Shown: positions 54,158 through 57,588, numbered from the stretch's first letter. The stretch is 64,000 nucleotides of DNA from Poseidonia sp. (GCA_040261535.1 JBDQNU010000003.1:42334-106333), one strand, 5' to 3'. Notes: generated from the letters alone by a model not told the origin. Program-made: numbers and translations.

Positions 54158-56094
54158 CAGGCCTCACCTCCTTTGAGAGCGCCCCACGCAAGAAGTTGCG
54201 CCCGAGCAGCCTGAGTAAGCGAATACTTTCTCGCCCGTCCTGAAGGCCGTACTTGGAGAATACCGAACTTCAGGAGACGGTTGCTGATCTGGGAAAGTCG
54301 AGACCGTTTGATGTCCAGATGACCCAAAATTTCGGGGTCCGATGGTGAAAATGCACGGCTATTGGAGATGCCAACCACGTAGGTCTCGGCGATGGTGAGT
54401 GTGCCGAGGGCGACCTTGTCGAGTGCATAGGATTCCTTCGGCCCCGTACGCTCAACGCGACGCTTTGCAAAGAAGTCAACGAGGTGTTGAACCTCGCCAC
54501 TCGAAGTGTTCTCCCTTTCACCCATCAGCAACTGAAGCAATCTGGAGAGGGTTGTTTCGTCAAGGACAGGGTGGACTGGAACGGGGTTCGTGAGCGACGG
54601 ACCCACCGTTTCCTCATCGCTCGTTTCAAATCCTTCGACCTCGGACTCAAACAACGCAACGGGTTCGGGAGCGGGTAAACCGATCTCATCGTGGATCAAG
54701 GCGGCTGATTCGGCCTCAGGCACCTCTTCTTCCGGTTCATCGGCCAAACTTCTTTCCTCAACCCACCATTCCGCAGCCTCCGAATAATCTTCAAGTCGCG
54801 TTGGACGGCTCATGGCGTCTTTCTTGATGGCATCAACCGATGAAAGGGAGACTTTGTTTCGGTTCACAAGGTTGCCAAATCCGCCGCTCGCCACCGGTTG
54901 ACGGGCTGGTGGATAACTTGAGGCATCGATGATGTCGTTGGTGAACTTAGGCGGTTTCAGCGGGTCGTCTTTGGTGATGGAGCGGTCAAGATCGTCCATG
55001 TCCAATTCGAAAGACGAACGACCAAGCGTTGTATCGTTGTCTTCAGCGTTTTCTTCATCGCTCGTCTTCGTTTCGACCGATGTTGCATCATGCACGGCGT
55101 CTTGGCGCTCGTTCCAGGGCGTGGAGGCGTCGATGATATCACCCGGAGGGGTTTGGGATGCCGGTTGAAGTTCTGCACCAAGGTTGCTCGTGCCTTCGTC
55201 TTGCTTTGCAAGGAACGGTTGTTCATTCTGGCCCCCGCTTCTCAACGCATCAAGCGGTTGTGACTCATCCCGGGGTTGGAGACGTGCAGACGTGTCCCTG
55301 TACGGCGGTGCAACCCCTTCAGCGTGCTCAATGCGAATCCGGTCAACAGCATCGCGAAGGGTTGCGACCACCTCGGAGGGGTAACCGCTGCATTCCTCGA
55401 GGATGGTTTCGGCATCCTGCAGGGAAAAATTGCTGCTCATGACCCCGACATCACGCAACCGGTGCTCCACCAATTCCACGACATCGCTTGCGCCAAACGG
55501 CGAGAGGAGAAACCGTTCAAAACCGGTGACCACCGTTGCAGGAAGGTGATTTCGTTCTCGGACATCGCACACCAAAACAACGACGGCGTTGAGCCGTTCA
55601 AGGGAAGAATGCGCATCTCTGAGAGCCACATCAACGACCGAGAAATCGCTTGCTGGAACGTCGATGACCACGAGCGGAAGTTTGTCCGTATAGGCGTACA
55701 TTTCCGTGACAAGTTGGTTCACCAGTTCGGTGCGCTCCGGGAGCGTGTCGCCTCCAATCAGTTGCTGGTAGCACATTTCCAACATCGCTTGCGCAGGGGC
55801 CTGCGCGGGCAAGTGATCGATGGAAATGTAGGCTCCCGCATAGGGTTTGAGGCATCGAACCAACGAGGTTCGCCCTGAGCCCAACGGCCCTGTGAGCATG
55901 ATACGGCGGGCCGTGCCCAGTTTCAGATACGTCCTGAGGAGGTTGAACTCCTCGCTTCTGCCGATGAGCTTCCCAGCATCGCCTGACTCAAGCGGCCGGG
56001 TGGAGAACGGATTCATATCGAGAAGTGGCAAGCCAAAAAGACCAGATTTCTGGACCATGGCAAGCAACCGCACTTCACGTATTTGATGTTTCAT
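54157..56094 (-). CDS. AAA+ (degenerate Walker motifs) - acidic linker - winged-helix protein
   Basis: NPF...LIGR, GPLGSGRTS, LVVID, SGYP; C-terminal LDIKRSRLSQISNRLLKFGIL...GRARKYSLT. Confidence 0.72.
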   Translation of the reverse strand: MKHQIREVRLLAMVQKSGLFGLPLLDMNPFSTRPLESGDAGKLIGRSEEFNLLRTYLKLGTARRIMLTGPLGSGRTSLVRCLKPYAGAYISIDHLPAQAPAQAMLEMCYQQLIGGDTLPERTELVNQLVTEMYAYTDKLPLVVIDVPASDFSVVDVALRDAHSSLERLNAVVVLVCDVRERNHLPATVVTGFERFLLSPFGASDVVELVEHRLRDVGVMSSNFSLQDAETILEECSGYPSEVVATLRDAVDRIRIEHAEGVAPPYRDTSARLQPRDESQPLDALRSGGQNEQPFLAKQDEGTSNLGAELQPASQTPPGDIIDASTPWNERQDAVHDATSVETKTSDEENAEDNDTTLGRSSFELDMDDLDRSITKDDPLKPPKFTNDIIDASSYPPARQPVASGGFGNLVNRNKVSLSSVDAIKKDAMSRPTRLEDYSEAAEWWVEERSLADEPEEEVPEAESAALIHDEIGLPAPEPVALFESEVEGFETSDEETVGPSLTNPVPVHPVLDETTLSRLLQLLMGERENTSSGEVQHLVDFFAKRRVERTGPKESYALDKVALGTLTIAETYVVGISNSRAFSPSDPEILGHLDIKRSRLSQISNRLLKFGILQVRPSGRARKYSLTQAARAQLLAWGALKGGEA

Positions 56095-56113
56095 TCATCA
56101 GGGTGCACTCAGA

Positions 56114-56220
56114 GACCTGTTAGGACCTGTTAATCGTGGAGCGGTAACGCTTCATCCGACTGCATTAACGCCAAATTAACGCACGGCTAACGCGTTAATG
56201 AAAGCGTTAAACCCGTTAAC
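56114..56220. repeat. Phased direct and inverted repeat array (TAACGC/GCGTTA; GACCTGTTA x2)
   Basis: GACCTGTTA at 56114 and 56124; TAACGC at 56145, 56166, 56177, 56188; CGTTAA at 56193, 56205, 56214; central palindrome TAACGCGTTA at 56188-56197. Confidence 0.8.
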
Positions 56221-56238
56221 ACAAGCCCGCCAAAGCCC

Positions 56239-57588
56239 ATGCGATTCATTCAAAGAACGCCTTGTCTACCCTCGGAACAGGGGACAGTCGTGCCGGTGGA
56301 AAACAGTCGAATCAAGGGCTTGTACAACCAAAGCGTGGAGGAACGGCGAACCATCGTCGCTGAAGCCTGCAACCTGACGGCCGAACACGTCGCTGCTCTT
56401 GCAGCGCATGGCGAATTGGACGAGGCAGCGGCCGACCGGATGATCGAGAACGTGATCGGGACGATGTCGTTGCCCATTGGTGTAGCGACCAACTTTTTGA
56501 TCGACGGCAAGCCCTACCTCATTCCGTTTTGCGTGGAAGAATCCAGCATTGTCGCTGCAGCATCCAACATGGCCAAGCGATGCAGGGCTTTGGGCGGATT
56601 CACCACCAACAACGACGAGCCCGTGATGATCGGGCAGATTCAACTGCTCGAAGTTGCCGACCTCGACGGTGCCGTGGCGGCTTTGGAACGCGAGAAAGAA
56701 GCCCTTATGGCGTTCTGTAACGACATCCCCTCCCGCATGATCGCCCTTGGCGGGGGATGCAAGGACATCCAATCACGAAAACTGACAACGGCATTGGGAG
56801 ACATGCTCATCGTTCACCTGCTGGTGGACTGCCGAGACGCCATGGGCGCCAACGCCGTCAACACCATGGCCGAGCGCGTCGCCCCACGCATCGAGCGTCT
56901 CTGCGGTGGCCGTGCTCATCTCCGCATCCTTTCCAACCTCGCCGCCCACCGCCTTGCAAGAGTATCCGCTACCTTCACGCCCGAGGAATTGGCTTCGGAC
57001 GGCTCACGGAAAGACGGTTTAGCCGTCATACAAGGTATTCTCGAAGCCCACGCCTTCGCCGTGGAAGACCCGTTCCGAGCCACGACGCACAACAAAGGCA
57101 TCATGAACGCCATCAGCAGCGTTGCCCTTGCCTGCGGACAAGATTGGAGGGCGATTGAAGCAGGATGTCATGCTTGGCCCAGCGTGGAACACGGACGCTA
57201 CACCTCCATGTCGAATTGGTCCCAAGATGATGAAGGCAATCTCGTCGGGAGCATGGAATTGCCGTTGGCTGTCGGCGTCGTGGGGGGCGCTTCCAAGGTC
57301 CACCCTGCTGCACAGGCGAACCTGGCCATCTTAGGCGTAGAGGGGGCTCAGGAGTTGGCCGGCATTATGCTCTGTGCAGGGCTCGCTCAGAATTTGGGCG
57401 CTCTGCGTGCGCTATCAACCAAAGGCATTCAGGCAGGCCACATGAAACTCCACGCCAAGAACATGGCCGTGAGCGCTGGTGCCGTGGGCGAGGAGATCGA
57501 CCTCTTGGCGGCAAGGCTCCAAGCTCACGAGGGTCACCGAACCCAGAGTTTGGTTGAGGAATGGCTCAATGAATTACGCGAAGGATGA
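56239..57588 (+). CDS. mvaA: Class II HMG-CoA reductase
   Basis: MIENVIG, EESS, DAMGAN, RILSNL, THNKGIMN, GIQAGHMKLH; true start may be a GTG near 56290-56296. Confidence 0.93.
   Translation: MRFIQRTPCLPSEQGTVVPVENSRIKGLYNQSVEERRTIVAEACNLTAEHVAALAAHGELDEAAADRMIENVIGTMSLPIGVATNFLIDGKPYLIPFCVEESSIVAAASNMAKRCRALGGFTTNNDEPVMIGQIQLLEVADLDGAVAALEREKEALMAFCNDIPSRMIALGGGCKDIQSRKLTTALGDMLIVHLLVDCRDAMGANAVNTMAERVAPRIERLCGGRAHLRILSNLAAHRLARVSATFTPEELASDGSRKDGLAVIQGILEAHAFAVEDPFRATTHNKGIMNAISSVALACGQDWRAIEAGCHAWPSVEHGRYTSMSNWSQDDEGNLVGSMELPLAVGVVGGASKVHPAAQANLAILGVEGAQELAGIMLCAGLAQNLGALRALSTKGIQAGHMKLHAKNMAVSAGAVGEEIDLLAARLQAHEGHRTQSLVEEWLNELREG

Follow-up and report, generated by a model that had tools for sequence, protein, structure and literature searches.

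A phased, mirror-symmetric site array between hmgA and an Orc1/Cdc6-like gene: a candidate multi-site operator of Poseidoniales archaea

The gap between the divergent genes P0001 and hmgA in a Poseidonia genome holds an array of short TTAAC(G) sites, which we examined as part of a 64,000-nt stretch of DNA (the window; C33:42334-106333 of assembly G000). The source is a metagenome-assembled genome (MAG) of the Marine Group IIa archaea, order Poseidoniales, with an assembly of 1,894,489 bp in 78 contigs and a G+C content of 57.7%. P0001, on the minus strand, encodes a protein with an AAA+ module and a C-terminal winged helix; hmgA, on the plus strand, encodes HMG-CoA reductase, and the 231-bp gap between them (56059-56289) holds the array. 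The sites are phased, clustered at one place in the genome and conserved, and they share their phyletic range with P0001, whose terminal domains have recognisable folds. On balance, we favour the view that the array is a multi-site operator or upstream activating site, presumably bound by an oligomeric form of P0001, that controls hmgA and P0001 itself.

The core of the array is 56 bp long and comprises six sites. Three direct sites on the plus strand (56165-56193; TTAACGC at 56165, TTAACGC at 56176 and CTAACGC at 56187, with 11-bp spacing) run towards three inverted sites on the minus strand (56192-56219; GCGTTAA at 56192, GCGTTAA at 56204 and CCGTTAA at 56213), and the two series meet in a central palindrome, TAACGCGTTA (56188-56197). 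The genus consensus of the direct sites is aTTAACg....atTAACgc....tTAACGC. The centres of the TTAA cores are spaced by 11, 11, 8, 12 and 9 bp, which places all six sites within ~1.5 bp of one helical face, and the set is mirror-symmetric about 56192/56193. An earlier note on this DNA had proposed such a helically phased, mirror-arranged array, and the geometry bears it out; the individual motifs it listed (TAACGC at 56145, 56166, 56177 and 56188, the palindrome, CGTTAA at 56193, 56205 and 56214, and GACCTGTTA twice, 10 bp apart) are all exact in the sequence. The two copies of GACCTGTTA form a distal pair at 56114-56132 (copies at 56114 and 56124, GTTA cores at 56119 and 56129), oriented like the inverted series of the core. 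Across 25 genus loci this pair has the conserved consensus cGTTA..a...GTTAa (cGTTA-N6-GTTAa), of which the two copies, judged by the alignment, are a local, slightly decayed form. The remaining TAACGC (56145-56150, plus strand) is particular to this genome, its alignment column being unconserved in relatives.

The hexamer itself is not in excess in the window, where it occurs 14 times against 10.5 expected, a count reached by 18 of 100 shuffles. What is exceptional is the clustering, with six of those 14 falling in the 65 bp from 56145 to 56209. The whole assembly contains 224 TAACGC/GCGTTA, and every other 110-bp stretch holds at most two, so the site density that the earlier note had seen nowhere else in the window is unmatched genome-wide and similar clusters are not common. 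The same is true of the 5-mer TAACG/CGTTA, present 991 times in the genome: the array has seven and the next densest cluster three. The palindrome TAACGCGTTA occurs once in the genome, and TAACG-N6-TAACG is found solely inside the array. The clustering is therefore far beyond chance. A search against Rfam gave no match. The single-strand fold of the array has a z-score of -2.5, as follows from the inversion of the sites; the sites being invariant, there is no covariation to test. Elsewhere in the genome, a single convergent pair, TTAACGCcaatCGTTAA, lies at C22:31763-31790, ~25 nt upstream of a Shine-Dalgarno-like GGGGAAGG and an ATG; this is the genome's only other promoter-like place with two close sites.

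The extent of the non-coding gap follows from a comparison with 29 related loci, by which both flanking open reading frames (ORFs) were most likely over-extended at their 5′ ends when called mechanically. For P0001 (54157-56058, minus strand; 633 aa with the revised start), the start codon is most likely ATG 56058 rather than ATG 56094: the former is the start codon in all genus relatives, the latter is not a start in many of them, and locus L017 has a stop codon between the two positions. The mechanically called ORF was 645 aa long, with a weak AAA_16 match. For hmgA (56290-57588, plus strand; Pfam PF00368, E = 2.7e-103), orthologues begin ATGCCnGT at the column of GTG 56290, which makes this the most likely start in place of ATG 56239, and the "MRFIQRT" of the window ORF corresponds to a conserved non-coding block upstream of hmgA. 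With both starts revised, the true intergenic region would be 56059-56289, and the "extra" codons at 56059-56094 and 56239-56289 are most likely conserved promoter DNA.

This assignment agrees with a promoter motif derived from 848 long ORFs of the assembly whose first ATG lies close to an upstream stop. Matches to the resulting genome-wide motif, cTT[CG]A[AT]g, start most often at -31 (24 matches) and -30 (32 matches) from the ATG, other positions having 1-8. This peak is the signature expected for the archaeal TATA element on leaderless genes, and its position implies that many mRNAs are leaderless. Shine-Dalgarno words of the GGAGGTGA type (GGAGG type) are enriched genome-wide at -18 to -1 of other genes. 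The TATA-like core promoter element of P0001, CATCAAATAC (56079-56088, minus strand), lies inside the genus-conserved block GTATaT.aTgTTTca and starts exactly 30 nt before ATG 56058, the modal distance in the genome, so that the P0001 mRNA is probably leaderless. On the other side, the conserved block GCGATTCATTCAAAGAACG (56240-56258, plus strand; consensus gCGaTt.aTTcAA.gaAcg) contains the hmgA TATA-like element ATTCAAAGAA (56248-56257), which has a promoter position weight matrix (PWM) score of 6.0 at 56248, 42 nt before GTG 56290; since most relatives have no ATG there, the block is taken to be non-coding. Judged by the position of this element, hmgA transcription would start near 56278, leaving a leader of ~11 nt with the Shine-Dalgarno-like GGGGA (56280-56284, plus strand), part of a conserved ggG.A block before the start codon.

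The array (56114-56220, distal pair included) thus falls between two TATA-like elements that both match the genome's own promoter motif. The nearest site is ~58 bp upstream of the putative hmgA start and ~59 bp upstream of that of P0001, and both the TATA elements and the predicted starts of transcription are free of sites. This location, in predicted non-coding DNA between core promoters, is what would be expected of an operator or upstream activating site. The TTAAC sites were also considered as TATA boxes themselves and rejected, as their promoter PWM scores do not exceed 5.5 and fall on the wrong strand; the conserved blocks on either side are the better match. RNA evidence was confined to Logan contigs, compared with the region for four metatranscriptome runs. 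In run X1, unitigs overlapping by 30 nt cross the array at a depth of 9.9, against 18.5 and 26.6 alongside; in runs X3 and X4, 56071-56204 is covered by no contig. Several RNA contigs begin at 56234-56237. Because contigs cannot show transcript ends and the libraries may contain DNA, we draw no conclusion about transcription starts from them.

The array is conserved upstream of orthologues, a check that the earlier note had suggested. In the orthologous gaps of the 29 related loci, the window left out, TAACG/CGTTA has a median of seven copies (range 3-9) and a density of 33.8/kb, against 0.46/kb in ~4.5-kb flanks, and TAACGCGTTA is present in 25 of the 29. (At L152, G041:C1:694500-695140 of a closed 2.06-Mb genome, the 15 central array bases are recorded as N and the palindrome is unscorable.) Across the 25 aligned loci of the genus the sites hardly change, and the 4-6-bp spacers vary between species. 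The exact layout, TAAC-7-TAAC-7-TAACGCGTTA-8-GTTA-5-GTTA, is kept in 27/33 other genus loci, and variant TAACG arrays occupy the corresponding position in all of 16 loci sampled from eight further genera. Such a phylogenetic footprint, with sites kept while spacers diverge, is consistent with a transcription-factor operator. A strict 15-base core, TAACG-N6-TAACGCGTTA, is found in 148/401 genomes of the order (144/199 in the family of the window's genome, 0/2 and 3/199 in the two others), nearly always once per genome; a reversed control pattern gave two matches. Wherever coordinates were compared by eye, this core lies 110-170 bp from the P0001 start, as in G077 (core at C2:354607, P0001 at C2:352631-354466).

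P0001 follows the same distribution. It is present in 41/41 genomes of a first draw and in 64/64 and 40/41 genomes of the order's two large families; the single genome without it probably has the locus unassembled, because its hmgA match is also missing. The divergent neighbour of P0001 is hmgA in 30/30 loci. P0001 was found in none of the genomes of the sister families of the class (0/43 and 0/2), and neither array nor P0001 occurs at the 12 hmgA loci that were retrieved from 15 genomes of these families. Upstream of hmgA, those loci have a short, ordinary region in which a TTTAA-type box precedes the ATG by ~25-30 nt, and at most one TAACG in 430 nt. The array and P0001 therefore share one phyletic range, the Poseidoniales.

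P0001 has an N-terminal Orc1/Cdc6-like AAA+ and lid module (residues ~1-250), an acidic, low-complexity and poorly conserved linker of ~270 aa, and a C-terminal winged helix in the last ~110 aa. A sequence search of the Protein Data Bank gave nothing significant and NCBIfam gave no match; 322 named database relatives, from Poseidoniales, are called only "hypothetical" or "ATP-binding protein". An AlphaFold2 (AF2) model of the N-terminal 262 residues has a predicted local distance difference test (pLDDT) score of 87.6. Its best matches in VIA are Cdc6/Orc1 chains (Z 15.9-14.6, 222-229 residues aligned), with MuB and TnsC (Z 14.5-14.1) and RFC (Z 14.0) within 1-2 Z units of them. Aligned by hhalign with the lineage's own Cdc6 profile, the sole AAA+ clade compared, the N-terminal profile gives 93.3% probability and E = 2.7e-7 over 225 columns, running from the pre-Walker VGR motif to the lid. 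Model and profile together point to homology of the AAA+ and lid module with Orc1/Cdc6. In Pfam, the N-terminal domain matches AAA_16 in 19/19 family members, nSTAND1 in 13/19 and an ORC-CDC6-like family in 6/19, the P0001 of the window itself scoring below the AAA_16 cut-off (28.2 vs 32.6 bits).

The catalytic motifs of this module are degenerate. Walker A reads GSGR(T/S), with the lysine replaced by an invariant arginine across the order; Walker B is hhhhD followed by V, Y, M or F, without the catalytic glutamate; and GYP[A/S] (GY/GxP) stands where Cdc6 has the sensor-2 motif GDAR. By its sequence, then, P0001 lacks the canonical marks of the Orc1/Cdc6 family, namely Walker A GKT, Walker B DE and the sensor-2 arginine.

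The C-terminal 120 residues are modelled by AF2 as a winged helix (pLDDT 82.2). Their top Foldseek matches are AdcR, ZitR, MarR, HlyU, SqrR and CzrA, with E-values from 5.8e-4 and template modelling (TM) scores of 0.5-0.56, and the domain is accordingly predicted to be a winged helix-turn-helix of the MarR/ArsR/SmtB-like kind. In the window protein it matches no Pfam family; among the 19 family members the Pfam matches are all weak (MarR_2 in 4/19, Cdc6_C, PF09079, in 2/19). Comparison with the Cdc6-type winged helix by hhalign gave 1.8% probability, and the ~270-aa linker separates the domain from the lid. Invariant within the domain are SPSD, the predicted recognition helix R.RLSQI and, in the wing, GR. 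P0001 is otherwise 23-31% identical between families, and the DNA core is likewise invariant; across families, recognition-helix residues and site variants vary too little for a covariation test.

P0001 is followed by P0003 (53105-54157, minus strand; 350 aa in the ORF list), whose start overlaps the P0001 stop, so the two genes are probably co-transcribed. P0003 lies downstream of P0001 in 27/30 loci, with no match in L027-L029. It is a conserved partner gene found only in Thermoplasmatota, and Pfam and NCBIfam searches gave no match; its language-model neighbours hint at a WD40-like beta-propeller with a TPR-like tail, at Atlas scores below 0.9 that make this a lead only. Beyond hmgA lie scpB, an scpA-like gene and smc on the minus strand, beginning 1.4 kb from the array; on its left, at a distance of 5.5 kb, is a canonical cdc6. 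The order smc-scpA-scpB-hmgA-P0001 ... cdc6 is conserved, including in G039, a closed genome of family f3.

We propose that the array acts as a shared cis-regulatory site of two divergent promoters, upstream of the hmgA TATA-like element and of the P0001-P0003 operon. Each P0001 winged helix would recognise a single TTAAC(G) core in the major groove, with all the cores on the same face of the DNA. Because the catalytic Walker residues are lost, the Orc1/Cdc6-like module would probably serve for oligomerisation or nucleotide sensing, with several subunits, perhaps six to eight, assembled on the array; the long linkers could let these subunits reach both orientations of the mirror-symmetric sites as well as the distal pair. 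The complex would then set hmgA transcription and feed back on the P0001-P0003 operon. Since the sites stay clear of the TATA elements and predicted starts, activation seems likelier than repression, the sign being our guess. A dedicated local regulator would fit the fact that no other genome locus has phased site pairs. As to precedent, Orc1-2 of Saccharolobus, itself an Orc1/Cdc6 protein, is reported to regulate transcription (PMC6061795, PMC9738581). The earlier note had left the choice between an autoregulatory operator that also controls hmgA and a replication or segregation site: the former fits the anatomy, the footprint and the lineage range, and the latter found no positive support.

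Several observations weigh against an operator bound by P0001. The link between protein and array comes from adjacency and from co-occurrence in one clade. The shared range would reflect a single evolutionary event and so counts as one observation, the kin not being independent; adjacency in turn discriminates little, because the synteny of the whole neighbourhood is conserved. Outside the genus the exact layout persists in only 3/16 loci within the family, drawn from eight genera, and in 0/10 from other families, the loci without it having variant arrangements of the same site. The arginine in place of the P-loop lysine and the missing Walker B glutamate make nucleotide-driven assembly uncertain. 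Finally, the transcription starts are placed by the promoter motif, the RNA contigs having given no usable start.

One rival we regard as improbable, albeit one to keep in mind: the sites may be an operator or upstream activating site for another, unlinked transcription factor, in which case P0001 would be no more than a conserved gene next door with its promoter in the same gap. The anatomical and conservation evidence is the same for both readings, and with regional synteny conserved across the order, neighbourhood says little about which protein binds. Against an unlinked factor, array and P0001 coincide in their phyletic range, neither being found in the 45 sister-family genomes or at the 12 hmgA loci there; the P0001 winged helix has its recognition helix as its most conserved part; and the genome has no second phased locus, as a wider regulon would have.

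A bolder conjecture, which strikes us as rather doubtful, is that Poseidoniales have in the array a single chromosomal landmark, recognised by an Orc1/Cdc6 derivative with degenerate catalytic motifs. On one version it might be an unconventional origin or an SMC-loading, centromere-like site, lying between cdc6 and smc-scpAB; on the other, a device with which an initiator-derived protein gates hmgA transcription and so ties membrane-lipid synthesis to the cell cycle.

That the array is a chromosomal replication origin, or part of one, with initiator-binding repeats beside a divergent Orc1/Cdc6-type gene, we consider unlikely. Archaeal origins as a rule adjoin their initiator gene, and there are features in favour: the array is single-copy, the AAA+ and lid module of the adjacent P0001 is closest to Orc1/Cdc6, the canonical cdc6 is 5.5 kb off in a linkage kept in G039, and neither cdc6 gene was seen to have a repeat array or long spacer beside it. 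The DNA itself argues otherwise. The gap is filled by two promoters and the array, and it has no unwinding element, its AT-richest 40 bp being 60% AT, a value reached by 29% of random 231-bp genomic pieces; the spacer at 56135-56164 is 40% AT. ORB-like (origin recognition box) long repeats are absent from the array, and its 7-bp sites at 11-bp spacing would be too close, given their footprint, for whole Orc1-type monomers. In P0001, moreover, Walker A is without its lysine, Walker B without its glutamate and sensor 2 without the arginine of GDAR. The earlier note had suggested mapping by GC skew, which turned out weak and noisy and showed no inflection in contig C33. In the closed G039 genome (1,598,520 bp), the locus at 614 kb coincides with neither a cumulative-skew extremum nor a switch in gene orientation, lying instead inside a long plus-strand gene bias (~160-900 kb); this skew test is weak because the replication component of the skew at third codon positions (GC3 skew) is about zero. 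With these features missing and no partition nucleoside triphosphatase (NTPase) gene adjacent, the note's idea of a replication or segregation cis site finds little in the DNA to sustain it.

A classical origin was not seen elsewhere either, as judged by repeats around the window cdc6 and by the ORF-free gaps of G039. The genome has a second, divergent cdc6/orc1 paralogue (C11:98886-100133), 25% identical to the window cdc6, and its upstream gap of ~190 bp has no obvious repeats. A genome-wide scan for repeat density revealed no origin, being dominated by coding repeats. In G039, plus-strand genes predominate at ~160-900 kb and minus-strand genes at ~920-1320 kb, and the GC3 skew (~-0.12) is almost wholly driven by the coding strand; the broad minus-to-plus switch, from ~1320 kb through the record start to 160 kb, might mark an origin region.

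Very improbable, lastly, is a centromere-like or SMC-loading landmark coated by P0001 as an adaptor and used by the adjacent SMC-ScpAB: the layout recalls parC (ParR) and tubC (TubR), in which a small DNA-binding fold occupies short phased repeats that overlap or flank a promoter, the array is single-copy and scpB-scpA-smc lies 1.4 kb away in conserved linkage, yet the neighbours (P0003, hmgA, ScpB, ScpA-like, SMC) include no ParA, ParM or TubZ-type gene, hmgA separates the array from scpB, general synteny conservation explains the linkage equally well, and we know of no mechanism for sequence-specific SMC loading in archaea.

Similar words occur in viral DNA. A scan of IMG/VR with the 15-base core returned 87 stretches, about the number expected by chance on a rough estimate, and 0/80 fetched loci encode P0001 or HMG-CoA reductase. 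Eight unrelated viral contigs (L166, L198, L171, L231, L179, L161, L186 and L167) have dense GTAACGCGTTAC or CGTTAC..GTAACG arrays near position 1500, with 9-13 TAACG in ~140 bp, often adjoining TAACC- or GGTAA-type tandem repeats. No P0001 or HMG-CoA reductase gene lies near the dense arrays of these eight loci, which are therefore probably phage arrays of a separate kind, with a regulatory or origin function.

In the surface ocean, few archaea are as abundant as the Poseidoniales (Marine Group II), none of which is cultured; to our knowledge, nothing is known about gene regulation in the order. HMG-CoA reductase catalyses the committed step of isoprenoid, and hence membrane-lipid, synthesis. 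In the literature searched, with subscription journals and bioRxiv supplements outside its reach, we found nothing on Poseidoniales promoters, transcription factors or origins and no paper linking Marine Group II or Poseidoniales with HMG-CoA reductase, and the titles listed by a search on archaeal hmgA regulation included no archaeal hmgA regulator. The P0001 family, its site and the architecture are undescribed, and the kind of system, a multi-site operator with an AAA+ and winged helix-turn-helix regulator, is already known. The locus thus offers a concrete candidate regulator-operator pair, made up of a 56-bp six-site array, a 120-residue winged helix and hmgA as target. If the operator reading is right, an AAA+ module of the Orc1/Cdc6 type would have been recruited a second time, independently, for a task other than initiation, and in this instance without its ATPase motifs. 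By-products for annotation are the correction of two start codons and a promoter model, TT[CG]A[AT] at -30 with many genes leaderless.

Among known systems, parC (ParR) and tubC (TubR) have phased repeats of ~11-12 bp at an operon promoter, bound cooperatively on one face and also used for autoregulation. The array resembles them in its ~11-12-bp phased repeats adjoining a promoter; it differs in being chromosomal, in having no gene for a cognate filament-forming NTPase and in being mirror-symmetric rather than purely direct. With archaeal oriC, where ORB or mini-ORB repeats lie beside orc1/cdc6, it shares inverted repeat sets that adjoin an Orc1/Cdc6-like gene and its single-copy status, whereas it has no AT-rich unwinding element, packs 7-bp sites at 11-bp spacing into 56 bp, occupies a 231-bp region shared with two promoters and shows no skew or orientation signal. 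The MalT/LAL (AAA_16/STAND) and NtrC-type regulators assemble cooperatively on short phased site arrays upstream of a core promoter, and like P0001 they combine an N-terminal P-loop oligomerisation module with a C-terminal helix-turn-helix. They are, however, bacterial, with a LuxR- or Fis-type helix-turn-helix and a sigma-70 or sigma-54 polymerase, and P0001 is without their sensor or TPR arm.

Saccharolobus islandicus Orc1-2 is said to have canonical ATPase motifs, a compact domain order and a genome-wide DNA-damage regulon reached through a hexanucleotide. It is described as a non-initiator that binds a short motif in promoters, and its likeness to P0001 lies in an Orc1/Cdc6-type AAA+ module joined to a C-terminal winged helix (PMC6061795, PMC9738581). 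In contrast to Orc1-2, P0001 has degenerate Walker A, Walker B and sensor-2 motifs, a ~270-aa acidic linker and a winged helix that is MarR/ArsR-like rather than clearly of the Cdc6 type, and its candidate target is a single locus with six to eight phased sites.

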